A stretch of 64,000 bases of DNA. Source: Deltaproteobacteria bacterium (GTDB taxonomy: Bacteria > SAR324 > NAC60-12). Within the stretch, counting starts at the first letter, position 1; each line of letters starts with the position of its first letter. Under the pieces are notes generated by a model. It was given only the letters and a program-made list of their open reading frames with translations. It did no database searches and was not told the DNA's origin. Both the position numbers and the translations under genes were made by a program. The DNA is taken from the NCBI GenBank assembly GCA_038150265.1, contig JAYOTF010000001.1, positions 32,665 through 96,664 on the forward strand, written 5' to 3'. Positions 1-64,000 of the stretch are shown in pieces.

Positions 1-717
1 CCTCGGCACAATCCCGAATTCACCCTGCTCGAGTGGTACCGGGCCCACGCGTCGCTGCAGGCCATCACGGCCGATCTGGAAGCCCTGCTGACCACGCTGC
101 GGCAGGGCCTTCCGGAACCGGCTCTGGCGCTCGAGTCCCTGGACTGGACCCGGCCGTGGCCCCGGAAGACCGTCTCTGAGGTGTTTCGGGATTTGCTGGG
201 AATGGAGCTGGAGCCTCCGGAGGGTCCGCTGCTCACAGCCAGTGCCCTCCGGCAAGCCGCTCAGGAAGCCGGGCACCAGACGGGCCTGGAAGGCGCCGAC
301 ACCTTTGAAGAGGTCTTCTTCCGGCTTTGGGATCAGCTGGAGCCTCAGCTGGGACAAGCAGCGCCCGTTTTTGTGCACGACTGGCCCCTCCCGCTGGCCA
401 GCCTGGCCCGTCCCTGTCCGGATCATCCCGGCTTTGCCGACCGCGTGGAGCTCTACATCCGGGGACTGGAGTTGGGAAATGGCTTCGGAGAACTGACCGA
501 CTCGCAGGAGCAGCGCCGCCGCTTTCAGCAGGATCTGCAGAATCGTGTGCAGGCCGGGCGCCCGGAGGTGCCGCTGGATGAAGCCTTCCTCGAGGCGCTG
601 GCTCAGGGCCTGCCCCCGAGCGCCGGCATGGCTGTTGGCGTGGACCGCCTCGTCATGCTCCTCACCGGAGCGCCCCACATCCGGGACGTCCTTGCCTTTG
701 CGTGGAACGAGCGGTAA
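1..717 (+). CDS. epmA: EF-P lysine aminoacylase (class II LysRS-like), 5'-truncated by window edge
   Basis: Frame 1 is open from base 1 and reads HNPEFTLLEWYR (class II motif 2). It also has ELYIRGLELGNGFGELTD and GLPPSAGMAVGVDRLVM (motif 3), with the short C-terminus typical of EpmA/GenX. Confidence 0.85.
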   Translation, partial: PRHNPEFTLLEWYRAHASLQAITADLEALLTTLRQGLPEPALALESLDWTRPWPRKTVSEVFRDLLGMELEPPEGPLLTASALRQAAQEAGHQTGLEGADTFEEVFFRLWDQLEPQLGQAAPVFVHDWPLPLASLARPCPDHPGFADRVELYIRGLELGNGFGELTDSQEQRRRFQQDLQNRVQAGRPEVPLDEAFLEALAQGLPPSAGMAVGVDRLVMLLTGAPHIRDVLAFAWNER

Positions 718-757
718 CCTTCCTGCTTCCCGCTTTTCCTTCACGACTCCTCACAGC

Positions 758-1369
758 ATGACCCTCATCTCGGCCACCCTGACCCTGCTCCTCATCATGG
801 ATCCCCTTGGGAACATCCCCACGTTCCTGTCGGTCCTGAAGACCATTGAGGACGAAAAGCGACGGCGGCAGGTGCTGATCCGCGAGCTGATGCTGGCCCT
901 GCTGGTGCTCCTGACATTTCTCTTTGCGGGAAAGTATGTGCTGCTCTGGCTGGGGCTACGCGAGGAGGCGGTCCGGATTGGAGGAGGCATTGTGCTGTTC
1001 CTCATTGCGATCCGGATGATCTTTCCACCCGTCAGTGGCGGAGTGATGGGCGAGCTTCCGGGGGGAGAGCCGTTTCTGGTGCCGCTGGCAGTCCCGATGA
1101 TCGCCGGGCCGTCTTCGCTGGCGGTGCTGATTCTGCTCGGAAATTCGGAGCCTGAGCGGTGGCTGACCTGGTTGGCGGCGCTGATGATTGCGTGGGGCGT
1201 CACCAGCACCATCATGATGGGATCCACCCTGCTGTACCGGTTGCTCGGACAAAAAGGGTTGGTCGCCCTGGAGCGCCTGATGGGCATGGTGCTGGTCACC
1301 CTGGCGGTGCAGATGCTGCTGGACGGCACCGCCTCGTACCTGGGGAAGGCCTCGCTGGGGTTGCTCTGA
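758..1369 (+). CDS. MarC/YhgN (NAAT) family membrane protein
   Basis: MDPLGNIPTF, GGIVLFLIAIRM, VPLAVPMIAGP and ERLMGMVL motifs; about 6 hydrophobic segments; ATG at 758. Confidence 0.9.
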   Translation: MTLISATLTLLLIMDPLGNIPTFLSVLKTIEDEKRRRQVLIRELMLALLVLLTFLFAGKYVLLWLGLREEAVRIGGGIVLFLIAIRMIFPPVSGGVMGELPGGEPFLVPLAVPMIAGPSSLAVLILLGNSEPERWLTWLAALMIAWGVTSTIMMGSTLLYRLLGQKGLVALERLMGMVLVTLAVQMLLDGTASYLGKASLGLL

Positions 1370-1375
1370 CGCGGG

Positions 1376-1651
1376 TCAGGTCCCGAGCGAGAACATGTGC
1401 TCGAGGTCATGCCGGGAGTAGGTCCGGAAGGCAATCAGCGTCTCGGTCGCAGTGATGCCATCCAGGGCGCCAATCTTCTCGGCCATCGTATCTGCAACCG
1501 CCTCCATCGACTTCACCCGGATCATGCACACCAGGTCAAACCGCCCAGCGACCGAAAACACTTCCGACACCTCCGGCAGGTCCACCAGGGTCTGAGACAC
1601 GGACTTGATCTGCGCCCGTTCCACGTTGAGTAACACAATTGCGGTAATCAT
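1376..1651 (-). CDS. Lrp/AsnC ligand-binding (RAM) domain protein, stand-alone
   Basis: MITAIVLLNVE...EVFSVAGRFDLV...GITATETLIAF pattern; GAGGAAGG RBS before the ATG at 1651. Confidence 0.85.
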   Translation of the reverse strand: MITAIVLLNVERAQIKSVSQTLVDLPEVSEVFSVAGRFDLVCMIRVKSMEAVADTMAEKIGALDGITATETLIAFRTYSRHDLEHMFSLGT

Positions 1652-1774
1652 AAGCCTTCCTCTTCTCACAAAGGATCAAATTCATCCGGACCCCTTGGCA
1701 CCGTCGCCAGCAGGGTCCTGTCGGGTCTGCCTCATCACATCTTGGAGTCCGGGATAAGGCAAGCTGAAGCCGGA

Positions 1775-2566
1775 CTACCAGACCGTCTTGATCAGGCCGC
1801 CGTCCACGGCAATGGTGCTGCCGGTGAGGTAGCTTGCGGCCTCTGACAGCAGAAAGGCGCCGGCCCGCCCGAACTCCTCAATCGTCCCATAACGTCCCGT
1901 CGGAATCGTGGCTGCCGAGCGAGCCTGCACTTCTGCCACCGGAATGCCCTGGGCGTTGGCCCGAGCCTGGTCGAGGCTCCGGACCCGGTCGGTGTCAATG
2001 CGTCCGGGCATGAGGTTGTTGATGCGGATGCCCTCCGGAGCCAGCTGATGCGAGAGGCTCTTCACGAGGCTGGTCACTCCAGAGCGCATCACATTCGAGA
2101 GCAGCAGCACGTCAATCGGCTCCTTGACCGAAGACGAGGTCACCGTCAGGATGGAGCCCCCGCCGCGCTCGCGCATCGATGGCAAGGCTCCGCGAATCAT
2201 CCGGACTGCGCTCAGCAGGTTCAGCTCAAAGGCCGCCTGCCAGTCGTCATCAGTAAAGCGGTCAAATGAGCCGGCAGGAGGACCTCCGGCATTGACCACC
2301 AGCAGGTCCACGCCTCCGAACTGCTGCTGCGTCTGGGCAAACCAGTTCTCAATGGAAGCGGGATCAGCGGCATCGAGCACCGTTCCCAGGGTTGCCGCGC
2401 CGGTGCTTTCCCGGAGGTGCCGGGCAGCGGCGGCAATGGGTTCTGCAGACCGGCTTCCCAGCGAAACCGAGGCTCCCTCCCGGGCCAACTCCTGGGCAAT
2501 GCCAAAGCCCAGGCCCTTGCTGGAAGCGGCCACCATTGCCACCTTTCCCTTCAATCCTAAATCCAT
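1775..2566 (-). CDS. Short-chain dehydrogenase/reductase (FabG-like)
   Basis: AASSKGLG Rossmann motif, NAGGPP, PGRIDTDR, YLTG...VDGG; GAGGAG RBS. Confidence 0.92.
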   Translation of the reverse strand: MDLGLKGKVAMVAASSKGLGFGIAQELAREGASVSLGSRSAEPIAAAARHLRESTGAATLGTVLDAADPASIENWFAQTQQQFGGVDLLVVNAGGPPAGSFDRFTDDDWQAAFELNLLSAVRMIRGALPSMRERGGGSILTVTSSSVKEPIDVLLLSNVMRSGVTSLVKSLSHQLAPEGIRINNLMPGRIDTDRVRSLDQARANAQGIPVAEVQARSAATIPTGRYGTIEEFGRAGAFLLSEAASYLTGSTIAVDGGLIKTVW

Positions 2567-2573
2567 GATCTCC

Positions 2574-5596: not shown

Positions 5597-7090
5597 TCAG
5601 TTCCAGCGAGAGACGAGATCAGTGAGGAGCCGTACCCCGACTCCGGTGGCCGAACCGCTGGGGTGGTAGTCAACGTGCTTGACGCTCCAGGCGGCTCCGG
5701 CGATGTCCAGGTGCACCCATGGCGTGTCGCCCACGAAGTGCTCCAGGAAGGCGCCCCCGATGATGGTTCCGGCATCTCCGTCTCCGATGTTCCGGAGGTC
5801 CGCGTGCTTGCCTTTGAGAGACTCGGCATATTCCGGATAATTCGGAAGCTCCCAGACCCGTTCGCCACTGACGGAAGCGGCCGCCCGGACCTGATCCATG
5901 AGCGCCGCGTTGTTGGTCACGGCTCCACAGGCCTGGTGGCCCAATGCAATGATGCAGGCTCCGGTCAGGGTGGCCAGGTCCACAACGGCCTGAGGCTTGT
6001 ACTGATCCACCACATACGCCAGGGCATCTCCCAGCACCAACCGGCCTTCCGCATCGGTATTGAGGATTTCCACCGTCTTGCCGTTGTAGGCCTTCACAAT
6101 GTCTCCGGGACGCTGGGCCTTGCCGTCGGGCATGTTTTCCGAGGCAGCCACAATGCCAATCACGTTTACCTTGGGCTTGACCTGCGCAATGGCCTGCATG
6201 GCGCCAATGACCGCTGCGGAGCCACACATGTCAAACTTCATCTCGTCCATGCCCTTGCCCGGCTTCAGCGAGATGCCACCGGAGTCAAAGGTGATGCCCT
6301 TGCCCACCAGCGCCACGGTTTCTTCCGCCTTTTCGTGGTGGTACTCCATGATGATCAGCTTCGCCGGCTCTTCTGCGCCCTGGCTGACTCCCAGCAGCAT
6401 GTTCATGCCGAGCTTCTTCATGTCCGATTCTTCCAGCACACTGAACTTCAGCTTCTGCTTCTTGGCCATCGCTTCAGCGCGCTTGGCCAGCTCCTTTGGC
6501 GAGAGCACATTCGGCGGCGTGTTCCCCAGGGTCCGGGCAAAGTTGGTGGCTTCTGCACGAATCCCTCCGTTCTTGACCGCCTTCGCATCCGTGGTGCCTT
6601 CCGGATCCACCAACCGCACCTTGACGCTCTTTGGCGCGTCTCCCGAGTCACCGGTCTTGTACTCGGTAAACTCATAGGCGCCCAGGCTCAGGCCTTCGGC
6701 AATGATCTCTCCCACGGGCTTGGCCGTCACCAGCCCCAGAAACTCCGGAACCGGCGTCACGACTTCCGCCACCTTCAGGGCGCCCAGTTGCTTCCCGGCC
6801 TTTCCGGCGGCTCGGCGCAGCGCTTCGGCGTCCAGGTCCTGCTTGGGTCCCAGCCCCACCAGCAGCACCTGCCCCAGGGCCTTGGCAGCGGTCACAACCT
6901 GATGCGTGCTCCCTTTCTTGCCAGAGAAGACCTTGAGCTTCTTGGCAGCGTCCAGCTGGCTGAGCACCTCTTCCGGAAGTCCTCCCAAGCCACATGCGGT
7001 CCAATCCAGGTCTTCGGCCACAAAGGCCAGGAGCGCCCCGGCTTTTTCCTGAGCCAGTTCTTTTGTGCTGTAGTCGAGTTTCAGTTCCAT
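5597..7090 (-). CDS. pepA: Leucyl aminopeptidase (M17)
   Basis: VGKGITFDSGG, MKFDMCG, NTDAEGRLVLGD, DLATLTGA and HLDIAG. ATG at 7090 chosen for its AAGGA RBS. Confidence 0.95.
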   Translation of the reverse strand: MELKLDYSTKELAQEKAGALLAFVAEDLDWTACGLGGLPEEVLSQLDAAKKLKVFSGKKGSTHQVVTAAKALGQVLLVGLGPKQDLDAEALRRAAGKAGKQLGALKVAEVVTPVPEFLGLVTAKPVGEIIAEGLSLGAYEFTEYKTGDSGDAPKSVKVRLVDPEGTTDAKAVKNGGIRAEATNFARTLGNTPPNVLSPKELAKRAEAMAKKQKLKFSVLEESDMKKLGMNMLLGVSQGAEEPAKLIIMEYHHEKAEETVALVGKGITFDSGGISLKPGKGMDEMKFDMCGSAAVIGAMQAIAQVKPKVNVIGIVAASENMPDGKAQRPGDIVKAYNGKTVEILNTDAEGRLVLGDALAYVVDQYKPQAVVDLATLTGACIIALGHQACGAVTNNAALMDQVRAAASVSGERVWELPNYPEYAESLKGKHADLRNIGDGDAGTIIGGAFLEHFVGDTPWVHLDIAGAAWSVKHVDYHPSGSATGVGVRLLTDLVSRWN

Positions 7091-8480: not shown

Positions 8481-8537
8481 CCCCTCAAAGGGACTCGTTT
8501 GAATTTTGCTATCCTTAACTTCATTGAAGGCATCCTC

Positions 8538-11225
8538 ATGAAAGCAGAAGCCCCCAAGGCCATCCGACTCGCCGACTACACCCCCCCGGCTTTTGAAGTC
8601 GAGTTCATCGACCTGTACGTGGAGCTGCACGACAACGAGACCCTGGTCACCGCGACCCAGAAGCTCCGGAGGCTCGGCGATCAGCCTGCCCCGCTGGTGC
8701 TCAATGGACAGGAGCTGGAGCTGCTGGAGGTCGCTCTGAACGGAGAACCCCTTGCTAGGGGCGCCTACCAGGTCAGCGACGACGCCCTCACGATTCCGGA
8801 AGCGCCAGCTGAGCTGACCCTGCAAACCGTGGTGCGGATTCATCCGGAAAAGAACACGGCGCTGGAAGGCCTCTACCGCTCCGGGAGCATGTTCTGCACG
8901 CAGTGTGAGGCAGAGGGCTTCCGCAAGATCACCTACTTCCAGGACCGTCCGGACGTCATGACCCTCTTCACCACCACGGTGGAGGCGGATGCCACGAAGT
9001 ACCCCGTGCTGCTTTCCAACGGCAACCCCGTCGATTCCGGAACCCTCGAGGAAGGCCGGCACTGGGTCCGCTGGGAAGACCCGTTCCGCAAACCAGCCTA
9101 CCTCTTTGCTCTGGTCGCCGGAGACCTCGGTGTGCTGGAAGCCGCCTTCACCACCGCGTCCGGACGCTCGGTGGCGCTGCGCATCTACTCTGAGCACGAA
9201 AACGTCCCGCGCCTCGGGTATGCCATGGAGTCCCTCAAGCAGTCCATGAAGTGGGACGAAGAGCGCTTCGGGCGTGAGTATGACCTCGACATCTACATGA
9301 TTGTCGCCGTCAACGACTTCAACTTCGGCGCCATGGAGAACAAGGGCCTCAACCTCTTCAACGCCAAGTACGTGCTTGCCGATCCGGAGAGCGCCACCGA
9401 CAGCGACTTCTACCACATCCAGGCCGTGATCGCGCATGAGTACTTCCACAACTGGACCGGGAACCGTGTCACCTGCCGGGACTGGTTTCAGCTCAGCCTC
9501 AAGGAAGGCCTCACCGTGTTCCGGGACCAGGAGTTCAGCTCCGACCTCAATAGCCGACCCGTCAAGCGCATTGACGATGTGAACGTGCTCCGGAACCATC
9601 AATTCCCGGAAGATTCCGGCCCCATGAGCCACCCGGTCCGTCCAGATACCTACCAGGAGATCAACAACTTCTACACGGCCACCGTCTATGAAAAAGGCGC
9701 CGAGGTCATCCGGATGATGTACAACCTGCTCGGACGTGACGGCTTCCGCAAGGGCATGGACCTCTACTTTGAGCGGCATGACGGCCAGGCGGTGACCTGC
9801 GACGACTTTGCAGCAGCGATGGAAGCCGCCAACGCGGTGGACCTGCAGCAGTTCCGGCGCTGGTACTCCCAATCCGGAACCCCGGAGTTGAAGGCATCCG
9901 GCCACTACGATGCCACCGCCCAAACCTACACCCTCACCGTGGAACAGTCGGTCCCGGATACCGTTGGGCAAAACGGCTTTGGCTTTGCCGCCAAGCAGGC
10001 AGCAGGTGCGGAGGCTCTGCAGAAGCAGCCCTACCACTTTCCGCTGGAAGCCGGCCTGCTCGGCGCTTCCGGAAACCCGCTTCCGCTCTTTGTGGCAGGC
10101 GCTGCTGACGGCCAGGAAACGGCGGTTCTCGAAGTCCGGGAGGCGCAGCAGGAATTCGTCTTCACACAGGTTCCGGAGCCGCCCATTCCCTCGCTGCTGC
10201 GTGGCTTTTCCGCTCCGGTCAAGCTGCACTTCGACTACACGGATGCCCAGCTTGCCTTCCTCATGGCGCATGATGCCGACCTCTTCAACCGCTGGGAAGC
10301 CGGCCAGACGCTGATGGTCCGGATCGCCCTCCAGCAGGTGGAGCGCCTCCGAAACGGCGAGCCCGTGGCGCTTCCGGAGGTCCTGCAGGCCGCCTTCGGA
10401 AGCCTGCTGGCTGATGCGGCCACCACCGACGCTGCGCTGCTGGCCCAGGCCCTGACCTTCCCGGATGAGCGGTACCTTGGCGAGCAGATGGACGTGGTGG
10501 CCGTGGAGGAAATCCACCAGGTCCGGACCCGGCTGCTTCAGCAACTCGCCGAGGCCTTCTCGGAGCCACTGTGGCAGCTGTACCACCGGTTGAACACTCC
10601 GGAACCCTACCAGCCCGATGCAGCCAGCATGGGACGTCGGGCGCTGAAGAACCGCTGCCTGTCGTACCTGACCTGCCTTGAAACCAAGGAGGCTCGGCAG
10701 CAAGCGTACACGCAGTTCCGTGAGGCCACCAACATGACCGACGTGTCCGGAGCCCTTGCGGCGCTCATTCATCAGCCCTGCCGGGAGCGCGAGCAGGCCC
10801 TTGCGCTCTTCTACGAGCGCTGGCAGAACGACCCGCTGGTCATCACCAAGTGGTTCACCTTGCAGGCCATGTCGTCGCTGCCCACCACGCTGGAGACGGT
10901 CCGGACCCTGCTGGCACATCCAGCGTTTGACCTCAAGAACCCGAACAAGGCCCGGGCCTTGATTGGGGCCTTTGTGCACTCCAACCCCACTCAGTTCCAT
11001 GAAGCCTCCGGAAAGGGGTACCGCTTCCTCACGGAGCAGGTCAAAACCCTCAACCGCCTCAACCCGACGATTGCAGCGCGGCTGGTGGGCGCCTTCAACG
11101 CGTGGAAACGCTACGATGCCGATCGGCAGGCCATGATGCAGGCTCAGCTGGAGGAGATCAACCAGATCTCCAACCTCTCCGGAGAAGTCCAGGAAGTCGT
11201 CTCCCGGGCGCTGGCTCAGGCATGA
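8538..11225 (+). CDS. pepN: Aminopeptidase N (M1)
   Basis: TQCEAEGFR, GAMENKGLN, HEYFHNWTGNRVTCRDWFQLSLKEG (HExxH...E) and YEKGAEVIRM. Confidence 0.97.
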   Translation: MKAEAPKAIRLADYTPPAFEVEFIDLYVELHDNETLVTATQKLRRLGDQPAPLVLNGQELELLEVALNGEPLARGAYQVSDDALTIPEAPAELTLQTVVRIHPEKNTALEGLYRSGSMFCTQCEAEGFRKITYFQDRPDVMTLFTTTVEADATKYPVLLSNGNPVDSGTLEEGRHWVRWEDPFRKPAYLFALVAGDLGVLEAAFTTASGRSVALRIYSEHENVPRLGYAMESLKQSMKWDEERFGREYDLDIYMIVAVNDFNFGAMENKGLNLFNAKYVLADPESATDSDFYHIQAVIAHEYFHNWTGNRVTCRDWFQLSLKEGLTVFRDQEFSSDLNSRPVKRIDDVNVLRNHQFPEDSGPMSHPVRPDTYQEINNFYTATVYEKGAEVIRMMYNLLGRDGFRKGMDLYFERHDGQAVTCDDFAAAMEAANAVDLQQFRRWYSQSGTPELKASGHYDATAQTYTLTVEQSVPDTVGQNGFGFAAKQAAGAEALQKQPYHFPLEAGLLGASGNPLPLFVAGAADGQETAVLEVREAQQEFVFTQVPEPPIPSLLRGFSAPVKLHFDYTDAQLAFLMAHDADLFNRWEAGQTLMVRIALQQVERLRNGEPVALPEVLQAAFGSLLADAATTDAALLAQALTFPDERYLGEQMDVVAVEEIHQVRTRLLQQLAEAFSEPLWQLYHRLNTPEPYQPDAASMGRRALKNRCLSYLTCLETKEARQQAYTQFREATNMTDVSGALAALIHQPCREREQALALFYERWQNDPLVITKWFTLQAMSSLPTTLETVRTLLAHPAFDLKNPNKARALIGAFVHSNPTQFHEASGKGYRFLTEQVKTLNRLNPTIAARLVGAFNAWKRYDADRQAMMQAQLEEINQISNLSGEVQEVVSRALAQA

Positions 11226-11687: not shown

Positions 11688-12173
11688 ATGCGAGACCTGA
11701 CGTTACGCGAACAGATTTTGATTGCCATTATGCTGGCCCTGATGGTGGGGCTGGTCGGGACCTGGCTGAACCAGCAGGTGCTGCAGGAGCAGACCCGGCT
11801 GGAGGAACAGCTCGCGTCTCGCAAGCAGCAGCTGAATGAAATTCGGCGGCTCAGCGACGAATGGCAGGGGCTCCAGCAAGAACCCACAGCTCCCCTGATG
11901 AAGCAGCCCCTCAGCTCGTTTGTCGAGGGCATTGCGCGAGACATTCGGGTTCAGGACCACCTGCAGATCAATGCCCTCAGCAACCCTCCGGAGGGCACCG
12001 AAGGCGTGCAGGTGCTGCTGGACCAGCTGCAGCTGGATGACCTGATGGCGGTCCTCTACCGGCTGGAGAACAACCGTCCGGTGCTGCGTCTCTCTCAGCT
12101 GGACCTCAGTGTTGCCCCCGGAAGTCGCCTGGTTCGGGCTTCGTTTCAGGTCCACAAGCCCTCTGGAAGCTGA
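11688..12173 (+). CDS. Type II secretion GspM/PilO-like inner-membrane protein
   Basis: LTLREQILI followed by one TM helix, a coiled coil and a ferredoxin-like C-terminus (LMAVLYRLEN...LRLSQLDL). Lies next to a GspN-like gene. Confidence 0.7.
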   Translation: MRDLTLREQILIAIMLALMVGLVGTWLNQQVLQEQTRLEEQLASRKQQLNEIRRLSDEWQGLQQEPTAPLMKQPLSSFVEGIARDIRVQDHLQINALSNPPEGTEGVQVLLDQLQLDDLMAVLYRLENNRPVLRLSQLDLSVAPGSRLVRASFQVHKPSGS

Positions 12174-12200
12174 CGTGGCTTCTCTTCCTGCAAGGTCCTC

Positions 12201-13100
12201 ATGCGCTGGCTGAAACGTCTCCTCATCACCCTCCTGATCCTCATCCTGCTTCCTGCAGCGGCGTTTTGGGGGCTCAAGCAAAACTTTCCCGGAGACAACG
12301 TGGCGCAGGTGCTCGAAGCCCAGGCGCTGAGCCAGGCGGGCCTGCCCCTCAAGGTGGCTCCCCTGCAGCTCGGGTGGACGCAGCTGGAGCTTCCGGAGGT
12401 GGCCCTGCTGCCACCGGCTACGTGGCGTCAGGCCCCGCAGGTGAAGCTGGTGGTGCTGGAGCAGCTGCGGGCGCCCTTCCTTCCGTTGCTTTCTCAGGAG
12501 GCTCGTTTGGAGGGAGAAATGCATGGCGGAGCCTTGAAGCTCACCGCCTCCGGACTGCCTCAGCCGCATCAGGTTCGGGCTCAGCTGGAGGGCCTGCAGC
12601 TCAACCGGATGCCGCTGGTGGCGCTCTTTCCGTATGGGACCCTTTCCGGAACCGTCTCCACCGAGGTTGAGGTCCGGAACGTCACCCCACTGCTCCGCCG
12701 GCAGACCTCGCTTCCGGAAGGGGACTTGAAAGGGAATATCACCAATCTCCGGGTCCGGCTTTCCGGGCTGGACCTGATCCTTCCCGGCATGGTGGTTCCG
12801 GACCTCGTCTGGCCGCTCATTCGCTACGACGTCACCCTCGGCGAGCAGTGGGTGTTGAACGAGTTGACGCTGCAGGGAAGCGTCAACGGTACAGTGACGG
12901 GCACAATCCGTCCGAATGTCCAAAAACCGGCAGACTCGCAGCTGGACCTCCGGGCCCAGATCACGCTGCCGGCAGAGATTCTGCAAACTTTGGGACCGCT
13001 GGCGCTCATGCTGCGGCCCTATCAGTGTGGTGTGGAACTTCGGGTTCGCCTGCAAGGCACCCCGGCCCGGCCCATCACCCGACCTGGAGCTTGCTCATGA
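12201..13100 (+). CDS. Type II secretion system GspN-like protein
   Basis: N-terminal anchor followed by NFP, a beta-rich body and a C-terminal LRVRLQGTPARP motif typical of GspN/AsmA-like proteins. Confidence 0.65.
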   Translation: MRWLKRLLITLLILILLPAAAFWGLKQNFPGDNVAQVLEAQALSQAGLPLKVAPLQLGWTQLELPEVALLPPATWRQAPQVKLVVLEQLRAPFLPLLSQEARLEGEMHGGALKLTASGLPQPHQVRAQLEGLQLNRMPLVALFPYGTLSGTVSTEVEVRNVTPLLRRQTSLPEGDLKGNITNLRVRLSGLDLILPGMVVPDLVWPLIRYDVTLGEQWVLNELTLQGSVNGTVTGTIRPNVQKPADSQLDLRAQITLPAEILQTLGPLALMLRPYQCGVELRVRLQGTPARPITRPGACS

Positions 13101-16236: not shown

Positions 16237-18537
16237 TCAGTGATTTAGGGCGGCCCAAACGCGCTGTGGGGTCAACGGCATCTCCAGATGCGTCACCCCC
16301 TGCTCTCGCAAGGCGTCCAGCACTGCGTTCACAATGGCCGGAGTCGCCCCCACGGTCCCCAACTCTCCAACGCCCTTGGCGCCCAATGGATTGGTTTCGC
16401 ACGGCACGCCTGGGTGCAGTTCCGTCTGCAGCGAAGGCAGGTCATCTGCACGGGGAAGTGCATAATCCAGAAAGGTGGAGTTGACGAACTGTCCGGATTC
16501 GTCATACACCGCATCCTCCAGCAAGGCCTGCCCCAGCGCCTGCGCCATGCCACCATGCACCTGCCCGGCAATGATCATCGGGTTGATGGCGTTGCCCACA
16601 TCGTCAACCGCCACAAGGCTCTGCAGCTGGATTTTTCCAGTTTCCGGATCAACCTCGACTTCCGCGACCTGGGCGCCATTGGGCCAGCTTGGCACCGGAA
16701 TCCTGGTGCTGGAAGTGGTTGAGATCGTTTGGTCCGGCTGCTGCTCCGCCAGTTCCAGCAGGCCCACGCCAATGTCGGTTCCGGTCACCGTGAAGCGTCC
16801 GTCCTGATAGATCAGGTCCTCCGGAGCGGCCTCCAGTGCCTCGGCAGCCAGTTTGCGGGCTTCCTCCAGAAACACTTCTGCGCCTTCCTTCACAGCAGAG
16901 CCGCCAATGTAGAGCGAGCGAGAGGCGTAGCTTCCCATGCCCTGCACCCGATCCGTGTCTCCCTGAAGCACCTGAAGCTGCTCCAGCGGCAGGTCGAGGG
17001 ATTCGGAGAGCAGCTGCAGGTACGTGGTGATGATGCCCTGCCCCATGGCCTGGGTTCCCGAGTAGCAGGTCAGGCCCTGAGGCGTGGCTTCCAGGCGGAC
17101 CTCTTCTTTCCACTCCGCCCCAGTCCATTCGATGTAGCACGACAGCCCGCGTCCCCGGAGCTTTCCCGTCGCCTGTGACTGGGCCTGCCGCGCGGCAAAG
17201 CCGTTCCAGTCCGAAACCTCAATGCAGCGATCCAGCACCTCGCCAAACTTGCCGCTGTCGTACACCTCCTTCATGGGGGTCGTGTAGGGGAAGGCATCAG
17301 CGGCAATGAAGTTCCGGTGCCGCATCTCCACGGGGTCGATGCCCATCTCACGAGCCGCCTGGTCCATGAGCCGTTCCATGAGGTAGATCGACTCCGGACG
17401 TCCGGCCCCACGGTAGGCGCCCAGCGGAGCCGTGTTGGAGGCATAGGCGGTGGCCTGCAGGTGAAACGCCGGGACGTGGTACAGCGAGGTTGCCACCTTG
17501 GGACCAATCATCAGTGGAATCGCCAAACCAGCTCCGGTGGGGTAGGCGCCCACGCTGCCTTGGGTCTCAATCCGGAGGCCCAGCACCCGCCCATCTGCAG
17601 CACAGGCCAGCTCGGCATGGCTGATCTGGTCCCGTCCGTGGACTGTGGCCACAAACTCCTCGCTCCGGGTCCCCCGCCACCGGATCGACCGCTTCAGCTT
17701 GGCGGCGGCATAGGCCACAATGACGTCTTCCGGATAGAGCCCGGACTTGATGCCAAAGGCTCCTCCGACGTCTTCCACAATCACCCGCAACGTCTCCTTG
17801 GGCACGCCCAGCGTCGCGGACAGTCCACCGAGGAGGCCATGAACGTTTTGGCTCCCAAGCCGCAGGGTGCGCCGTCCGGTTTCCGCATCATACTCGCACA
17901 GCACCGTCCGGGGCTCGAGGGCATTGCCCACCAGCCGGTTGTTCCGGAGGTCCAACTTGCTCACATGAGCCGCTTGGGCAAAGGCCTGCGCCACGGCTTC
18001 GGCATCACCAAATTCCTTGTAGGCCACTGCGTTGCTGGGGCAGCCTTCCCAAATCGCAGGCGTGTTGGCTTCCACCGCCTGTTCCAGTGAACCCGTCACC
18101 GGCAGCTCGTCGTAATCCACCTCGACCAGGCTGGCTCCATCGGCGGCCTGGGCCTGCGTCTCTGCCACCACAGCCGCCACGATTTCACCGACGTGCCGGA
18201 CGACATCCCCAGCGATGGCATGCCGGTCCGGGTGCACCATCGGCTCCCCATCCGGACGCGTGAAGCCCTTCACGGCCGGAAAGGGGTTGACCCCATCGGC
18301 GGCCAAATCCGCTGCCGTGTACACGGCCACCACGCCGGGACTCTGTCGTGCGGCCTCCAGGTCAAGGGACGCCACACGGGCATGCGCAACGTAGGAGCGC
18401 ACCAGGTGCACATGCAGCTCCCCAGCCGATGCGCGATTATCCGTAAATTTGCCTTTTCCCGTAATCAGGCGATCATCTTCAACACGACGGAGGGAATCTC
18501 CGGCTCGCGACTTTCCACGGGTAACGGCTTCAGTCAT
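16237..18537 (-). CDS. Xanthine dehydrogenase family molybdopterin-binding subunit (form II CoxL-like)
   Basis: RRVEDDRLITGKG, VGGAFG, AYRGAGRPE, MGQG, GQVHGG and GAKGVGE motifs. Confidence 0.93.
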   Translation of the reverse strand: MTEAVTRGKSRAGDSLRRVEDDRLITGKGKFTDNRASAGELHVHLVRSYVAHARVASLDLEAARQSPGVVAVYTAADLAADGVNPFPAVKGFTRPDGEPMVHPDRHAIAGDVVRHVGEIVAAVVAETQAQAADGASLVEVDYDELPVTGSLEQAVEANTPAIWEGCPSNAVAYKEFGDAEAVAQAFAQAAHVSKLDLRNNRLVGNALEPRTVLCEYDAETGRRTLRLGSQNVHGLLGGLSATLGVPKETLRVIVEDVGGAFGIKSGLYPEDVIVAYAAAKLKRSIRWRGTRSEEFVATVHGRDQISHAELACAADGRVLGLRIETQGSVGAYPTGAGLAIPLMIGPKVATSLYHVPAFHLQATAYASNTAPLGAYRGAGRPESIYLMERLMDQAAREMGIDPVEMRHRNFIAADAFPYTTPMKEVYDSGKFGEVLDRCIEVSDWNGFAARQAQSQATGKLRGRGLSCYIEWTGAEWKEEVRLEATPQGLTCYSGTQAMGQGIITTYLQLLSESLDLPLEQLQVLQGDTDRVQGMGSYASRSLYIGGSAVKEGAEVFLEEARKLAAEALEAAPEDLIYQDGRFTVTGTDIGVGLLELAEQQPDQTISTTSSTRIPVPSWPNGAQVAEVEVDPETGKIQLQSLVAVDDVGNAINPMIIAGQVHGGMAQALGQALLEDAVYDESGQFVNSTFLDYALPRADDLPSLQTELHPGVPCETNPLGAKGVGELGTVGATPAIVNAVLDALREQGVTHLEMPLTPQRVWAALNH

Positions 18538-27428: not shown

Positions 27429-28397
27429 TCAAATTTCAGCCGTCACCAGGGCTTCGGCTTCCTGACGGGCCACATCGGCCAGCGGGGTGCTCAGGTAGCG
27501 CTCCGCAAAGCTGGCGCAGATGACCACGATCTTCTTGCCCGCCATCTCCGGACGCGCTCCCACCTGCAAGGCGGCCCAGATCGCGGCTCCGGAGGAAATC
27601 CCCACCGGAATGCCTTCCACGACTCCCATGCGACGCGCAGTTGCAAAGGCGTCCTCATTGGTCACCTGCACGACCTCATCAAGGAGGTCCACGTTCAGGT
27701 TTTCAGGAATGAACCCGGCCCCGATTCCCTGAATTTTGTGGGGTCCGGGCTGCCCTCCACTGATGACCGGGCTGGCGGCGGGTTCCACCGCAATGGCCTG
27801 AAAGGACGGCTTCCGAGACTTGATCACGTCGGCAACTCCGGTGATGGTTCCCCCCGTTCCCACGCCAGCGATCAGGGCATCCACCTCGCCCTCGGTGTCG
27901 TTCCAGATCTCCAGCGCCGTCGTCTGACGGTGCACCTCCGGATTGGCGGGATTGTTGAACTGCTGAGGCATGAAGCCCCGCGCGCCCTGCTCCGCGACAA
28001 TCTGCTCGGCTTTCGCAATCGCGCCCCCCATGCCCCGTGCGCCCGGAGTCAACACGATCTCGGCCCCCAGCATCCGGAAGAGGATCCGTCGCTCCACCGA
28101 CATCGTCTCTGGCATCGTCAGAATGAGCCGATAGTTTCGGGCCGCACAGGCAAAGGCCAGCCCGATTCCGGTGTTTCCAGAGGTGGGCTCCACAACCACA
28201 CCATCCGGAGGCAGCAGGCCTTCCGCCTCGGCCGCGTTGATCATCGCGACCCCAATGCGGTCCTTCACACTGGACATTGGGTTGAAAAACTCGCACTTGG
28301 CATACACCTCGGCCGCCAGACCTTCCGTTACTTTATTCAACCGAATCAAGGGGGTATTCCCGACACTTCGGGTCACATCCGTTACCAGCATACGCAT
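27429..28397 (-). CDS. cysK: Cysteine synthase A
   Basis: GNTPL, SVKDRI (PLP lysine), TSGNTG, GVGTGGT and HKIQGIG. The alternative ATG at 28391 has better RBS spacing. Confidence 0.96.
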
Positions 28398-37700: not shown

Positions 37701-38613
37701 GGGTGACCCGCTGGAAAACGTCATCTTCAAGTACCACTTTGAGCGGAACTTTGAGCGCAAGCCCTTCCAGGTGCCGCTCCCCATCTCCAAAAGCCTCAGC
37801 ATTCCCCGGTCCCGCATCAAGCTGGACTACAGCAAGGACAGCGGCCGCTGGAGCTTCAGTTCCATGATGAGCCGCAAGGATTCCGGAGGAGGCAGCGATT
37901 CCACGCTGCCCATGTTCCACTCGCATCTGGCAGAAGGGATCGCCCGGTGTGTGCTGAGCGGGTACATCGGATTTGGAGGCCGGAGCCTGACGTCGTTTGA
38001 CAAGTCCGCCAGCATGTTCCGGAGCGAAACGGCCACCAACCCCATCACCGGGCAGGACCTGATGAACCTCAGTCAGGAGATCGCCAACTTCTTCGGCAAG
38101 ATGCACGTCAAGTCTCGGGAGTTGCTGGAAAATGTTCACTACATCCGGGATGTCTTCATCGCCTGTCACGTCAACCGCTTCAACACCCTCTCGCTCGTGG
38201 TCCGGGACAACCTGGCGGAGCAGTTTGTAATCAGCTTTGACATCCGGGACATCAAGATCCCCAAGGTGCCGGCGAACCTGAAGATGGGCTTTGACGAAGA
38301 GCTCCCCAAGTTCTTCATGCGCCTCAACCACCGCCAGTGCCGGATGCTGCTCCTGAAGCACCTCGCGGCCCTGCGGATCCCTCTGCTTGCCGAGCACCCC
38401 CCTCGCCTGCGAACCTGGGTCAACCCCGGGAAGTTCGACCTCCCAGTCGCGCCCAAGTTTGCCATGATCTACATCAACGGCATTGCCAACGCGCTGCTTC
38501 CGTCCACTAGCATTGGCACCCGAGAGTTCCTCATTCCCCCCCCGTTGGCCACAACGTTTGACGAAATGGGACGCGAGGCGATTCGCCTGCACACAGAAGG
38601 CTCCTCCTCATAA
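34771..38613 (+). CDS. Large class I adenylate cyclase-like nucleotidyltransferase (1280 aa)
   Basis: GSLGGIGHKPDSDMD (Pol-beta-type GS...DxD), EIHFF, GSMAYSLMLNDF, PKALL and LDPW, in the same order as the CyaA class I conserved blocks. Confidence 0.7.
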   Translation: MADTGKAARPQLDLQLEALTSLNAHVPCNPQGSSAASALRGLLQDLQKTTFTDALKKSYSAERLEKIRDYAHQEFAAMGRTNRRRMESLVGLASEDMHKTMFEALFLFDVNAEGNTLSVEEKTKDFDESGKPIYQTHTYPVFFPKAPHGIFGVERFLPESVRHEEEGGIHHYLKETYPDLVGQFQQATDTPIKALTTIGSLGGIGHKPDSDMDAQIILDTYPEHPHCWNDGDFFVALIMRIIDDFYKTYWERVLKPERRHELHEQACNILLEQYADGLSPEEQRVVDLIFESSFRQESRKLMQEELKQLSPDEQGKLFRQQLAMTLRDFPDAESLLPQLLKFFSFLKQPAAELQGQLFRFSLKQLTPDKVTLWLTQYYREQFLGVESARQVLSQAGVEEAPEPQQRKALVEHIQGNPLVGELAVAFMNEIVSRISHDARSKVPEVVQILKSQFPGIAEAIEKDFVQKLWAKLDESFREHMGNLIEAFNDWEAKQKEVALEYPIHQKVYQAEAYLTQKYPSTEIHFFTNILRKQRAGQHTPFLVSPEGSMAYSLMLNDFLLNPATVLCGTMPMPFDLPREFKLFASVGMFPGEEWTLKQYLDPNAPLPGEEPAAPQGEGEATEEAAAPEPADPGEFEAFELRTLPNWGETAIPREKFLEHALPIFLRESEKVSHRNLPKALLNCWWLEMIVVLDEEDQPPTSLTRLLWNPDRRHFVQENIEGEITDALLDMERKYPQLVLDPWWLKFTEMFARFESYEQDEDRPDFSLSTLSMIQKQILFCFAQHLRLSDIINYENQGKAVWLDENANWRAHAMVDYYNYFFSNPRERQELIRFMQGRDDAGNRMEKLLKQLFLESMQRVEKKLCSIGKSHALQTITTQLQQLSREEVNTEKASKFLNPLLALVNQRVSIEDRKVLLKVKNKQPLNKLEKLQATLIYEDHQKMKNVVMNIADYFKQFGVQLDETWVRKAIIESRVRIAGDPLENVIFKYHFERNFERKPFQVPLPISKSLSIPRSRIKLDYSKDSGRWSFSSMMSRKDSGGGSDSTLPMFHSHLAEGIARCVLSGYIGFGGRSLTSFDKSASMFRSETATNPITGQDLMNLSQEIANFFGKMHVKSRELLENVHYIRDVFIACHVNRFNTLSLVVRDNLAEQFVISFDIRDIKIPKVPANLKMGFDEELPKFFMRLNHRQCRMLLLKHLAALRIPLLAEHPPRLRTWVNPGKFDLPVAPKFAMIYINGIANALLPSTSIGTREFLIPPPLATTFDEMGREAIRLHTEGSSS

Positions 38614-48004: not shown

Positions 48005-49879
48005 TTACTCACTGAAGAGGCGTCCGCCTGTTTGCCGAGTCAGGACGTGGAGCCACGCGTCATTGCGGCGCAAGTCATGGGCTTCCAACCAGTCTCCCAC
48101 CACCACCAGAGGCAAGGTGGCGTCTCGCATGTCAGAACAGCCGCAGGAGAGGTTCAGCTCATACTGTCCGGGCGGCAGATCCGACAGACGAATATAGGTG
48201 GTCTGGTTGGAAACTGCCAGCGCTTCCTCATAGACTTTTTGCCCCAGCTGCTGCTCCGTGACAGTCAGTTGCACGGTGTCGGAATGAGTGGGCAGGTGCA
48301 GGGTGCCTTCGATGGATTCAGAACGGTGCCGGGGCCGGAGGGACTGCAAGGCCCAGAACATGCGCTGACGTTCATGAAGCGGCTGGTACAGCAGAGACTG
48401 CCAAAAGAGGGCGTAGCGGTGATCGGTCACGGCACTGGAAGGCTCATACCGCCAGCGCCAGCTGATCGGATCCTCCACCCAATCCACACGGCCCAACCGA
48501 AACGGGGTCCGACGCAAAACCGTGGAAGCGTCCTCCGCCCCCTCCAGTTGCTGAAAGCTCGTCTGCTGCTGCAGGTAATCTGCCGGAAGCAGTGCGGTCT
48601 CGGCAAACTGCCACGTCGGCTCATGGACCGGTTGCAGCTCCAGGCGCTCATCTGCCGTCAGGAACAGCTCCTGATAGCCCTGCCCCGACGACTGCTCTCC
48701 CCCCAGCGCAATGATGCGTCCACCTCCCGCGAGGTAGCGCTGAAACGCACGCTGAAACTCCGGATTCCTCAGGTACTTCTTGATGTCGAAGTTCTGGAAG
48801 ATGACCGTGTCCATCTTGAACAACTCACGCAGAAACAGCTCCCGGACGGGAAACTGAATCAGCGCCAACTCTTCTTCCGGAACATTCTGGGCATCCTCAA
48901 ACGGATCCCGGAGGATGAAGAAGGCGATCAGGTCCAACTCCGGAAGCGTCTTCAGCAAACGCCTCAGGTGCAGCACGTCCCACCCGGGACGCCCAGCGAT
49001 GTGGAGCACCTTCAAGCGAGCCGTCCGGACGGTCAGTGGCAGGTAAGCCAGGTTGTCGTGAACGTTGGCCTCATTGCCGACCGGAATCAGCCTCAGCGAC
49101 AGCAGCGACTCTCCAGTCCGGGTAGGCGTCCACTCCAGCTCAATTTCTTCCTGATGCCGTCCCTGAGGCAGCTGCAGCGACCGTTGGGTCAGGACGGACT
49201 GGCCGTCCATCAGGATCAGGCTGGTCATGGAAGGCGCCTCCAGGTCCGACTGCACCTCCACCACCATCCGTGTGGACTGATTCACAAAGGCCACCCGCGG
49301 GTTCGCCAGCTTCCCGAGCCAGGTCTCCTGACGACGTGGGGGATCCGGGAACCAGGCATGGAGCACCCAGCCAGCTTCCTTTGCGTCCTGAGCCAGGCGA
49401 CGGGGCAGCTCAGCACTCCGGGTGTCGTTGCCATCACTGATCAGCAGCAGCTCGCTCCCCTCCGGAATGCCGCCTTGGCGAATGAACCGCCCCAGGGCCT
49501 CTTGAAGCGGTGACTCTTCCGGAGAGGCACCCGGCTCAAAGAGGTTGAAGTAGTGAGGCTGATGTTCCGGAAAATGCTGGTCCAGCACCCCTTGAAAAGA
49601 CGAAGGCAGCCCTGCGGCCTCCGACCCCTCAGCCGACAGGCTCAGGGTCTGTTGCACACTGGCACTGCGGTCCACCAGCACATACAGGGGCTTGGGGGGA
49701 GGAGCAAAGGTGGCGCTGGCGGCCTCCACCAGCAGCAGCAAGGCGGCCAGGAGGAGGACTCGTCCCCCCAGGCTCGCCCACGACAGGGCATCACGCCGGC
49801 GGCGGAGCAGCACGATGCTGTACCCCGCTGTGGCAACAGCAAGGGCAAACCAGAGGAGGGTGTAGGTAACGGGCATCAC
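48005..49879 (-). CDS. Membrane-anchored protein with vWA-like and glutamine-amidotransferase-like domains
   Basis: Two N-terminal TM helices, VDRSAS and LISDGND (MIDAS-like), Ig-like segment, then LIAFFILR...ELALIQFPVRELF. Confidence 0.75.
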   Translation of the reverse strand: MMPVTYTLLWFALAVATAGYSIVLLRRRRDALSWASLGGRVLLLAALLLLVEAASATFAPPPKPLYVLVDRSASVQQTLSLSAEGSEAAGLPSSFQGVLDQHFPEHQPHYFNLFEPGASPEESPLQEALGRFIRQGGIPEGSELLLISDGNDTRSAELPRRLAQDAKEAGWVLHAWFPDPPRRQETWLGKLANPRVAFVNQSTRMVVEVQSDLEAPSMTSLILMDGQSVLTQRSLQLPQGRHQEEIELEWTPTRTGESLLSLRLIPVGNEANVHDNLAYLPLTVRTARLKVLHIAGRPGWDVLHLRRLLKTLPELDLIAFFILRDPFEDAQNVPEEELALIQFPVRELFLRELFKMDTVIFQNFDIKKYLRNPEFQRAFQRYLAGGGRIIALGGEQSSGQGYQELFLTADERLELQPVHEPTWQFAETALLPADYLQQQTSFQQLEGAEDASTVLRRTPFRLGRVDWVEDPISWRWRYEPSSAVTDHRYALFWQSLLYQPLHERQRMFWALQSLRPRHRSESIEGTLHLPTHSDTVQLTVTEQQLGQKVYEEALAVSNQTTYIRLSDLPPGQYELNLSCGCSDMRDATLPLVVVGDWLEAHDLRRNDAWLHVLTRQTGGRLFSE

Positions 49880-59569: not shown

Positions 59570-59589
59570 GTGCGTTTCACGTGAAACAT

Positions 59590-62250: not shown

Positions 62251-62252
62251 GG

Positions 62253-63338
62253 TTACCTTTGAGAAAGGGGTGGGTCGGGGAGGGTCTGACGGAACTCAAT
62301 CAGCGCCTGGGTGGCTGCATTCAGGTCTTCGGCAGAAAGCCGGAGGGCGTACTCGTAACGAGCCATGGCGTGTTGGTAACGCGGGTCATAGTAGTCGGTC
62401 AAGAGGATCTGTGCCAATTCTTCCAAATGCCCATGCTTCAGGCAGTGACGCAGGTGCTCAACGCGCTTGGCACTCAGTGCCATTTTGAGGGTCTGCAGGA
62501 TGGCATCAACCTCCTGGACGTCAGCCTCGCTGCGGAGGGCGTAGTCTTCAACCGTTCGCTGCACCCGGGTTTCCAAAGAGGCCTCCAGCAGCACCGTCAC
62601 GCCTTCCCGGAGGGTCTGGAACACGGGCTTGGGAATGAAGACGGGCCCGACCTTTCGGCTCTCCCCCTCTACAAACCAGTGAGCCCCAGCAGGCAGAGCC
62701 TGGATCTGTTGCAGCATCAGGCCCTCAAAGTTGCGCTGCGTCCGGGGGTGGAGGTGCAGGGCGCCAAACAGTGAGCTGCGGTGCTGGGCCAGCCCTTCCA
62801 GGTCCAGGTGATCCGGGAGCCCTCGCAAGATGCGGGTCTTGCCAACACCGGTTTGCCCATGCAGCACAATGAAGGAGCCCGTGAAGGCGCCCAGCTCCTT
62901 CAGGACATGATTGCGGTAAGCCTTGTACCCGCCCTGAAGCTGCTGAACCCGGTACCCCTGCGCCTGCAACAGGCGCACAACCGAGGCGGAGCGCATTCCT
63001 CCACGGGCACAGTAGACAATCAGCGGCTGTTCCTGCAGCGGAAGGAAGGGCTCCAGAAATTCCTGAACCTTCTCGGAAACCAGGTCCTTTCCGCGCTCAA
63101 CGGCCACCTGAGGTCCCACCTGTTTGTAGAGGGTCCCGATCTCCGCTCGCTCCATGCCACTGAACAGGGGGATGCTCTGGGCACCGGGAATGGCGCCTTG
63201 CTGAAACTCTTCAGGCGTCCGGACGTCGACCAGCTGGTGACCCGACTGCAGCGCCGCTTCCGTTGAGAGGCTCTCGAGGTCTCCCTCCAGAAAACGATCA
63301 ATCCCGGCCCGGAAGGTCGCTGCAGTGGTGGTGGTCAC
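62253..63338 (-). CDS. mnmH: tRNA 2-selenouridine synthase
   Basis: Rhodanese domain DVRTP.EF..G.IPGA and [10 protein letters not shown]-loop [24 protein letters not shown] and YYDPRY. Confidence 0.95.
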
Positions 63339-64000
63339 TCTTCACCATCTTCCGCAACCGGTTCGGCTTCCTCACTCACTGGAAGCAGGCTGTGCCGCTC
63401 GCGCACCAATCGCTCCAGTTCTTCTGAAATCTCAGAGTGTTCCTCCAGAAACCGGATGGCGTTGTCTCGGCCTTGCCCAAGACGCTCCTTGTTGTAGGAA
63501 AACCACGTTCCGCTCTTCTGAACCAGTTCCAGCGCCACGGCATAATCCAGCAGCACTCCAAACTGAGAGATGCCCTTTCCGTAAATCAGGTCAAACTCTG
63601 CAGACCGGAAAGGCGGGGCCAGCTTGTTCTTGACCACCTTCACCTTCACCCGGTGCCCCTGCACCTCGTCGCCCTGCTTGATCTGAGTGGTCTTGCGGAC
63701 GTCCAGGCGAATGCTTGAGTAAAACTTCAGGGCCTGGCCACCGGTCGTTGTTTCCGGATTGCCAAACACCACGCCAATCTTTGACCGCAACTGGTTGATA
63801 AAGATGAAGATTGTGTGGGATTTAGAGACCGACCCTGTCAGCTTCCGGAGGGCCTGTGACATCAAGCGGGCATGCAGGCCCATGTGGGAGTCGCCCATGT
63901 CGCCGTCCAACTCGTTCTTGGGCACCAACGCGGCCACCGAGTCCACCACCACAATGTCCGCCTTACCAATCCGGACCATCTGTTCTGCAATCTCCAGGGC
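63335..64000 (-). CDS. recA: Recombinase RecA, 5'-truncated by window edge
   Basis: [46 protein letters not shown] and KNKLAPPF; frame open to base 64000. Confidence 0.98.

Follow-up and report, generated by a model that had tools for sequence, protein, structure and literature searches.

The 64,000-bp window analysed here (G000:C1:32665-96664) belongs to a genome of the phylum SAR324 (G000; 3,393,712 bases in 87 contigs, 61.2% GC, 97.8% complete) and is densely populated by the hexamer TCCGGA. We found that TCCGGA is a lineage-specific palindromic word that saturates this genome and whose maintenance acts on double-stranded DNA. Its 9,711 genome-wide copies, one per 350 bp, make it the most frequent of all 4,096 hexamers, at 8.67 times the zero-order expectation, and are spaced in phase with the DNA helix. 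The original prediction, made from the letters of the window, had proposed that the lineage possesses something that generates or maintains the motif. This proposal is supported by enrichment in all reading frames and in intergenic DNA, by 41% occupancy of the available positions, and by retention at orthologous sites above the codon baseline.

The observed-to-expected ratio of TCCGGA fell with rising Markov order, from 8.67 at zero order through 7.57, 3.95 and 2.39 to 1.22 at order four. The low final value arises because the expectation is derived from TCCGG and CCGGA, 54% of whose occurrences are TCCGGA itself. The maximal-order model, which still leaves about 1,750 sites in excess (rough z ~20), is therefore uninformative as a sole test. 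The probability of A after TCCGG is 0.54, against a background of 0.19. CCGG lacking both T/A flanks occurred at 0.74x expectation; a single flank raised this to 1.78x and the pair of flanks to 8.67x, twice the 4.3x predicted for independent flanks. Together with the residual at order four, this excess indicates that the enriched unit is the whole palindrome and that the sub-words inherit its abundance. Outside the hexamer, the information content was at most 0.08 bit per position, and TCCGGA is therefore not part of a longer repeat. It also does not resemble REP- or MITE-type repeats, given these uninformative flanks and the location of most sites (8,446 of 9,711) inside called genes.

Genes were called with a simple open reading frame (ORF) and codon model, which gave 2,569 approximate calls and 85% coding DNA. 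The 8,446 coding copies compare with 2,029 ± 42 in 20 within-gene synonymous-codon shuffles, a 4.16x excess (by frame, 3.9x, 3.2x and 5.2x). In the same comparison, fourteen other palindromes ranged from 0.23x to 1.40x. Intergenic spacers were likewise enriched, at 8.8x between tandem, 7.6x between divergent and 10.6x between convergent genes. The excess of TCCGGA is thus a property of the full hexamer and is not a side effect of base composition, codon usage or dipeptide preference.

The original prediction had argued that dipeptide or codon preference is insufficient as a cause, and the ratio of 4.16 after codon-usage correction, the 3.2-5.2x enrichment over all frames and the intergenic excess agree. 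It had also named two outcomes that would speak against it. One, confinement to a single reading frame, is not the case, as all three frames are enriched. Nor is the other, a ratio near 1 after correction for sub-words and codon usage: the maximal-order ratio is only 1.22, yet the ~1,750 surplus sites and the codon-corrected 4.16 stand. A compositional, codon-usage or assembly artefact, to which the ratio of 1.22 might seem to point, is already refuted and retains next to no probability. The excess over synonymous shuffles appears in every frame and extends to intergenic DNA, enrichment is seen in genomes from 43 to 61% GC, the same DNA is present in six sequencing runs from three studies (one of which may be the source sample), and independently assembled relatives carry the same trait.

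Helical phasing, occupancy and turnover

The spectrum of distances between TCCGGA copies showed a peak at 10.5-10.6 bp that was as strong as the 3-bp peak. When occupancy was permuted within gene and frame among permissible positions, at which the encoded residues allow TCCGGA, the phasing power was 126 ± 62, against 1,279 observed (z 18.5; 0 of 200 permutations). A stricter null, in which shuffling was restricted to the same amino-acid context, gave 59 ± 40 (z 30; 0 of 200). Spacings of 11-17 bp were avoided, with 37 pairs against 150 expected under the context-matched null. By distance, phasing reached z 19 at 12-60 bp, z 10.5 at 60-120 bp and z 4.1 at 120-180 bp, and was not significant beyond 180 bp save for an isolated excess at 400-500 bp (z 4.9). 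Same-frame and cross-frame pairs were phased alike, with an amplitude of about ±15-20% of pair frequencies. Genome-wide, 41 pairs were separated by 41 bp and 44 pairs by 42 bp, against 26.6 and 37.1 expected, respectively.

The phased pairs were spread over 1,257 genes. The signal persisted at z 14 without the 250 most pair-rich genes and at z ~15 in each random half, and removal of multiples of 21 left 1,412 in-phase against 979 anti-phase pairs. The relative amplitude at 10.5 bp was 0.217 for TCCGGA compared with 0.006 for AA/TT, and no AA/TT periodicity was seen around TCCGGA. Normalised power was 23.8 for TCCGGA and at most 5 for control hexamers, with the exception of CCGGAG/CTCCGG (10.7), which overlaps the motif. 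The phasing was replicated in a genome of another genus, g12 (G013; 780 kb sampled, 56.6% GC), at 32.8% occupancy with a period of 10.55 bp (z 7.1; 0 of 200), and in the congener G002 (z 4.0). A further genome, G007, offered only 15 pairs, so that the test there was without power. Neighbouring sites influence one another by helical phase, and the copies show the helical spacing of phased architectural-protein arrays beyond any constraint from the coded proteins. The phase relation between neighbours shows that TCCGGA is recognised in double-stranded form, on a single face of B-DNA.

We found 8,444 of the 20,383 permissible positions (41%) to be occupied. Occupancy rose to 0.77-0.82 where only common codons are needed (I-R-T, F-R-T and V-R-T, the last up to 0.82). 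Across 2,245 genes, its variation was purely binomial (chi2/df = 1.00), and it remained at 0.41-0.43 in all five quintiles of codon bias, used as a proxy of expression. The only dip, to 0.22-0.33, fell in the first 120 nt of genes, to which approximate start codons may contribute. Counts in 5-kb windows were evenly spread, with a mean of 14.5, a variance of 16.5 and a minimum of 3. The force behind this pattern operates on DNA at single sites, in a uniform manner and without dependence on the expression proxy.

The comparison with G002, whose contig C1 is collinear with G000:C1 at 78% DNA identity, revealed how individual sites behave. In 170 orthologue pairs, with 88.8% identical residues and, among those, 60.8% identical codons, 1,020 positions were permissible in both genomes. 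G002 carried TCCGGA at 244 of the 420 positions occupied in G000 (0.58) and at 123 of the 600 unoccupied ones (0.205). By frame, 0.47, 0.65 and 0.59 of the sites were retained. The component codons, measured outside motifs, predict 0.28, 0.35 and 0.22, and the values for other hexamers at these positions were 0.16, 0.34 and 0.18. The conservation of sites between orthologues that the original prediction had suggested checking was thus found, with TCCGGA kept about twice as well as its codons. The sites are nonetheless turned over, and it is the density, not particular sites, that is maintained. No dominant deamination signature was seen between orthologous sites of G000 and G002, the differences being distributed over all six positions. 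One-off variants of TCCGGA were not seen to be depleted in G000.

The constraint also reaches the encoded proteins. In the strongly enriched genomes G000, G013 and G002, the ratios for the dipeptides S-G, P-E and P-D were 1.37-1.50, 1.65-1.68 and 1.36-1.42, compared with 1.16-1.19, 1.27-1.36 and 1.21-1.26 in intermediate genomes and 0.95, 1.04 and 0.82 in genomes purged of the word. The reversed dipeptides showed no trend with TCCGGA enrichment. Dipeptides that permit TCCGGA therefore rise with motif enrichment, a trend that a small sample of ~1x genomes fits imperfectly (S-G 1.31, P-E 1.41).

Copies in the window and in related genomes

The features of the window to which the text refers are as follows.

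1..64000, no strand: TCCGGA over the whole window, 208 copies, compared with shuffled sequence
8499..11225, + strand: pepN-like aminopeptidase N gene with 20 copies in three reading frames (Pfam: Peptidase_M1, DUF3458, DUF3458_C)
16237..18537, - strand: CoxL-like molybdopterin-binding dehydrogenase subunit with 8 copies (Ald_Xan_dh_C, MoCoBD_1, MoCoBD_2)
1685..1690, no strand: intergenic TCCGGA between a MarC-family ORF (545-1369, +) and a short-chain dehydrogenase ORF (1775-2566, -)
5791..5837, no strand: example of a TCCGGA pair at 41-bp spacing, about four helical turns

The 208 copies, about one per 308 bp over the entire window, compare with 22.53 ± 4.54 (maximum 37) in 100 dinucleotide-preserving shuffles, none of which reached 208. 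At the 60.6% GC of the window, the zero-order expectation is about one per 3.06 kb, or ~21 copies. The enrichment is therefore about 10-fold, which matches the lower end of the predicted 10-20-fold range and not its upper end. Other palindromes were far rarer: ACCGGT and AGGCCT, which have the same composition, occurred 14 and 29 times, GCCGGC 26 times and CCCGGG 23 times. The coordinates given for individual copies in the original prediction (111, 216, 417, 972, 1011, 1423, 1685, 1978 and 2034) are all correct. Recounting likewise returned its 20 copies in pepN (8538 to 11225) against one ACCGGT (10585), and its 8 copies in the CoxL-like gene (16492, 16643, 16820, 17393, 17571, 17729, 17943 and 18251). 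Comparing pepN with named genomes was uninformative on taxonomy, the matches being to Gammaproteobacteria and others at 47-60% identity. The three frames appear as claimed in CTC CGG AGG at 8665, ATT CCG GAA at 8795 and TCC GGA at 9159, and the copy at 1685 does fall between the ORFs at 545-1369 (+) and 1775-2566 (-). Further pairs at 41-bp spacing lie at 27547/27588, 36648/36689 and 42716/42757. The statement that the window holds no cognate enzyme met nothing contrary among the 15 window ORFs that were scanned against Pfam. Three ORFs gave no Pfam match at E <= 1e-5, at 34771-38613 (+), 48005-49879 (-) and 11703-13055 (-), encoding 1,280, 624 and 450 aa, respectively.

We surveyed 88 genomes of the phylum, in which the relatives were sampled at 20-780 kb and are not independent of one another; their whole-genome counts were normalised by the GC content measured on the sampled DNA. 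Normalisation by AGGCCT was dropped, as this word is itself ~4x depleted in G013 (254 copies in 3.4 Mb against ~1,027 expected at 56.6% GC). GGCC stands at 0.60x in that genome, and the depletion may be restriction avoidance. Strong, hexamer-specific enrichment was found in genus g1 (8.7x in G000, 6.9x in G002), in g12 (7.5x in G013) and in part of g11 (11.5x in G044, at 43.2% GC). In these genomes ACCGGT, CCCGGG and GCCGGC were at or below expectation, except for ACCGGT in G044 (2.2x). Enrichment was intermediate and still specific in g4 (4.1x), g3 (3.8x), g10 (3.0x), g6 (2.0-2.4x) and the genome G040 (4.6x). Genus g2 (G003, ~1.1x at 46.8% GC) and G041 (1.5-1.75x) were not enriched, and g11 alone spans 1.5x to 11.5x. 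The trait is thus graded within one family of the phylum, from ~1x to 11.5x between related genera.

Other apparent cases in the phylum were set aside. Family f7 is not an independent instance: G069 and G079 have a general CCGG excess of 2.4x, with all NCCGGN palindromes at 1.4-3.4x, a weaker effect that differs from the TCCGGA-specific one. In G066, the share of TCCGGA among WSSSSW words was neutral in the sample. The purged genomes do not reflect restriction specific to TCCGGA, since CCGG overall stands at 0.10x in G084 and 0.21x in G023. G084, in which CGCG stands at 0.05x beside CCGG at 0.10x, encodes a HpaII-type pair (G084:C5:127578-131510) that consists of a C5 methyltransferase of 350 aa and an adjoining RE_HpaII protein of 359 aa (E 1.9e-119). 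Different C5 methyltransferases occur in G086 and G087, and the enzymes of G084 and G087 are 28% identical. G000 has several further word biases: TA stands at 0.31x, CTAG at 0.05x, TATA at 0.07x, ATAT at 0.12x and CGCG at 0.44x, the ATA codon is nearly unused, measured against synonymous shuffles TTCGAA stands at 0.23x and TCGCGA at 0.36x, and the order-4 model puts GAGCTC at 0.43x.

Candidate enzymes and competing explanations

Searches of G000 gave no match to PF00145 (C5 methyltransferase) or PF03852 (Vsr), to which control genomes matched, and none to PF02384 (N6_Mtase) or PF02976 (MutH). Two PF01555-type (N4/N6-type) methyltransferase genes were present. One lies on contig C45 (G000:C45:1404-5096) and encodes a beta-class N6_N4 enzyme of 258 aa with a TSPPYW motif. 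It stands head to tail between a reverse-transcriptase ORF (RVT_1, 469 aa) and a 311-aa ORF without assignment, in the order reverse transcriptase, methyltransferase, 311-aa ORF, and the locus looks like an accessory defence-type island. A full-length orthologue was found only in G001 (71% identity), with short partial matches in G002 and none in G013. This enzyme was rejected as the cause because G002 and G013 are enriched too.

The second methyltransferase gene (G000:C51:2-1387) is cut by the end of contig C51 and has motif I (VLDPFMGGGT) and motif IV (ITSPPYPG) separated by ~170 residues. The best PDB matches of its motif IV region are 8s9n and 8s9m, annotated as 'DNA cytosine-N4 methyltransferase' (E ~2e-5). 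The enzyme is confined to the order, occurring in 32 of 44 genomes of family f1, 18 of 19 of f2 and none of 24 of other families. Its full form in G002 (G002:C16, locus L005 451-2643) has 730 residues, of which the first ~350 are charged tandem repeats of the EDRPRR/EDRPRY type. Across 27 genomes clustered by genus, which offer perhaps two or three independent contrasts, the length of this N-terminal tail tracks motif density with a Spearman coefficient of 0.83: the tail measures 293-399 aa in g1, 222 in g12, 167-234 in g11, 84 in g2 and 69-149 in others. We treat this correlation as a lead and not a result. In several g11 genomes, one in-frame stop was reported inside the match to this methyltransferase.

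We put first the reading that TCCGGA copies are docking sites of a putative abundant dimeric DNA-binding protein that reads one face of B-DNA, a tentative choice held with slightly less than even confidence. It is placed first because an interaction by phase is expected from cooperative dimer binding and hard to obtain from a single-site repair drive or an uptake filter. The putative dimer would dock on TCCGGA on one face of B-form DNA, and bound copies would interact with others a whole number of helical turns away. Each of the ~20,000 permissible positions, as well as non-coding DNA, could thus carry a weak advantage or binding-dependent protection, and ~40% of the permissible positions might thereby be kept as TCCGGA while individual sites come and go. 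We infer from these patterns the protein itself, its dimeric and self-associating nature, and selection in place of mutational drive. Among the mechanisms listed in the original prediction, a nucleoid-protein site fits best, with copies phased with the helical repeat. Support is weakest for a solitary methyltransferase coupled to biased repair, as there is no C5 methyltransferase, Vsr, MutH or N6_Mtase match and the two N4/N6-type enzymes do not track the trait. The overall interpretation in the original prediction is partly supported.

Several observations weigh against a docking protein. An amplitude of only ~±15-20% means that phasing accounts for the arrangement of sites and not for the bulk of the 8.7x excess, and the phase preference in intergenic DNA is weak (quintiles of 87, 64, 72, 80 and 99 over 402 pairs). 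Uniform occupancy, independent of the expression proxy, is equally expected from a genome-wide mutational or repair drive. Since 176 of 420 sites (42%) are unshared with the congener, no individual site is important. No histone-fold protein was found in G000. The small basic ORFs of this genome, of which 28 of 34 were scanned, are mostly ribosomal, with one HU, one AbrB-like and one WGR protein besides. The AbrB-like protein was rejected as the reader, as searches of the three genomes of the strongly enriched g12 did not recover it and non-enriched genera carry it. For HIP1, the highly iterated palindrome of cyanobacteria, the excerpts of PMC13756078 describe an early gel-shift search (Robinson et al. 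1997) that gave no specific protein complex. No reader emerged among the candidates checked, and the mechanism is one that we infer. A more far-reaching version, which we consider doubtful, is that this SAR324 family organises its chromosome by sequence-specified chromatin, with an abundant self-associating protein on TCCGGA and selection for phased sites powerful enough to recode four in ten permissible positions synonymously and to shift dipeptides. The C51-type methyltransferase, whose charged repeat tail of 170-400 residues was gained exactly in the most enriched genera, could be the reader or a licensing writer.

The same methyltransferase is the candidate in a methylation-linked ratchet of the HIP1 type, in which a solitary enzyme would mark TCCGGA or CCGG and methyl-dependent repair would convert near-cognate sites, with no function needed. 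Such a ratchet, for which the portion of Elhai 2015 at hand provides a precedent (PMC4390886), appears unlikely to us. Among the sequence-specific DNA enzymes found, the C51-type enzyme alone is conserved in the group (32 of 44 f1 and 18 of 19 f2 genomes), its motif IV region best matches DNA cytosine-N4 methyltransferase chains, its tail length follows motif density (Spearman 0.83), and uniform occupancy suits a drive. However, perhaps two or three independent lineages underlie the tail correlation. The enzyme occurs in the non-enriched g2 (7 of 9 genomes) and in the CCGG-purged G023, and was not found in G011 (3.0x enriched, 95% complete). G000 lacks matches to C5 methyltransferase, Vsr, MutH and N6_Mtase, neither a dominant deamination signature nor a depletion of one-off variants accompanies the word, and a per-site drive predicts neither helical phasing nor the avoidance of 11-17-bp spacings. 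The last point also bears on a signal for conspecific uptake or recombination, in which competence machinery would prefer DNA with TCCGGA and recombination would spread the word, along the lines of the DUS/USS model and of a recent argument on HIP1, since this model predicts no 10.5-bp phasing and no out-of-phase avoidance either. [quoted passage not shown] A 6-bp word nevertheless provides little specificity, and ComEC was discarded as a discriminator, since every one of the 35 high-quality genomes of the phylum has it, be they enriched, neutral or purged. We consider an uptake signal improbable.

Non-adaptive shielding, to which we assign a similarly slim chance, shares with the docking-site reading an abundant protein on TCCGGA and accounts for the same phasing and uniformity. 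Bound sites would mutate less, and cooperative same-face binding would shield in-phase sites best, which is compatible with fast turnover and retention only ~2x the baseline. Shielding lowers loss only, and the rise from ~10% (2,029 of 20,383) to 41% would need a loss rate about six-fold lower. It also leaves unexplained both the deficit of out-of-phase spacings relative to the null (37 against 150) and the enrichment of permitting dipeptides. Intrinsic DNA mechanics would dispense with a dedicated reader: TCCGGA might be bendable or kinkable, and its phased placement might tune curvature or supercoiling in the manner of phased A-tracts, whose periodicity, as outlined in parts of PMC3940949, resembles the decay of phasing within ~180 bp. 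We rate this explanation slightly lower still. There is no coupling to AA/TT (amplitude 0.006, no periodic pattern around the motif), the range from ~1x to 11.5x at similar GC (G003, 1.1x at 46.8%; G044, 11.5x at 43.2%) points to a trans factor, and ACCGGT, CCCGGG and GCCGGC, the sister palindromes, do not exceed expectation apart from ACCGGT in G044 (2.2x).

Comparison with known systems

Restriction sites are normally avoided in bacterial genomes. TCCGGA, which we take to be the recognition site of BspEI, Kpn2I and AccIII, shows the opposite of avoidance in G000, and where other members of the phylum do show avoidance, CCGG in general is its target. In very-short-patch repair by Dcm and Vsr, known for CCWGG in E. 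coli, a methyltransferase-linked repair bias shifts word frequencies, with effect sizes far below 8.7x. That system needs a C5 methyltransferase and Vsr, neither of which was found in G000, and the deamination products TCTGGA/TCCAGA are not depleted there. DNA uptake sequences, the DUS of Neisseria and the USS of Pasteurellaceae, are non-palindromic words of 9-12 nt with a known link to a receptor. Like TCCGGA, they are short, over-represented genome-wide and evenly spread over genes and spacers. The TCCGGA signal differs in being confined to a 6-bp palindrome (flanks at most 0.08 bit) with no oriented word of 9-12 nt.

To our knowledge, thirty years of debate about highly iterated palindromes have been confined to a single phylum, the cyanobacteria, and have not produced agreement on a function. 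No paper on an excess of TCCGGA or on iterated palindromes in helical phase came up in lexical searches of open-access papers and bioRxiv. TCCGGA adds another case, independent of the first, from a marine lineage that is abundant and uncultured, in which the mechanism is narrowed by the bare 6-bp word, the lack of C5 methyltransferase, Vsr and MutH matches, the binomial 41% occupancy and the 10.5-bp phase. Because the trait is graded from ~1x to 11.5x among related genera, phylogenetic profiling can find the responsible factor once whole proteomes are compared. The case further illustrates the reach of a DNA-level constraint into proteins, as permitting dipeptides are enriched in step with the word. 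In practical terms, codon models, k-mer binning signatures and restriction-based methods will misbehave on TCCGGA-rich genomes.

In its phasing, TCCGGA resembles phased nucleoid-protein arrays and A-tracts. The available sections of PMC3940949 describe, for A-tracts, a 10-11-bp periodicity that decays over one to two hundred bp, as the phasing of TCCGGA does. The difference lies in the element itself, which is one exact GC-rich 6-bp palindrome, present once per 350 bp, mostly in genes, where it biases codons and dipeptides.

The likeness to HIP1 drawn in the original prediction is apt as a description. In the excerpted text of PMC13756078, the HIPs of cyanobacteria comprise four octamers, HIP1 (GCGATCGC) and the alternates GGGATCCC, TCGATCGA and CAGGCCTG. 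As far as the consulted parts of PMC4390886, PMC5861425 and PMC13756078 describe them, HIP1 and TCCGGA are both short palindromes far above expectation in coding and non-coding DNA, spread by substitution and not by insertion, are retained at orthologous sites above a neutral baseline, and differ in abundance between related lineages. TCCGGA thus displays several marks of a HIP-type element: a genome-wide excess in all frames and in non-coding DNA, no mobile repeat, and orthologous retention above baseline. The two nevertheless differ in several respects. TCCGGA is a hexamer, HIP1 an octamer, and the phyla are SAR324 and cyanobacteria, the closest homologues of one G000 protein being named SAR324 cluster bacterium. 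A GATC or CGATCG core is missing from TCCGGA, and no C5 methyltransferase match was obtained in G000, whereas HIP1 is tied to DmtC and DmtA. TCCGGA is present at ~2,860 copies per Mb, compared with roughly one HIP per kb in the portion of PMC4390886 at hand. Finally, the periodicity reported for HIP1 spans 10-90 kb, and Xu et al. 2018 use neither the word 'helical' nor 'helix', whereas TCCGGA has a period of 10.5 bp.

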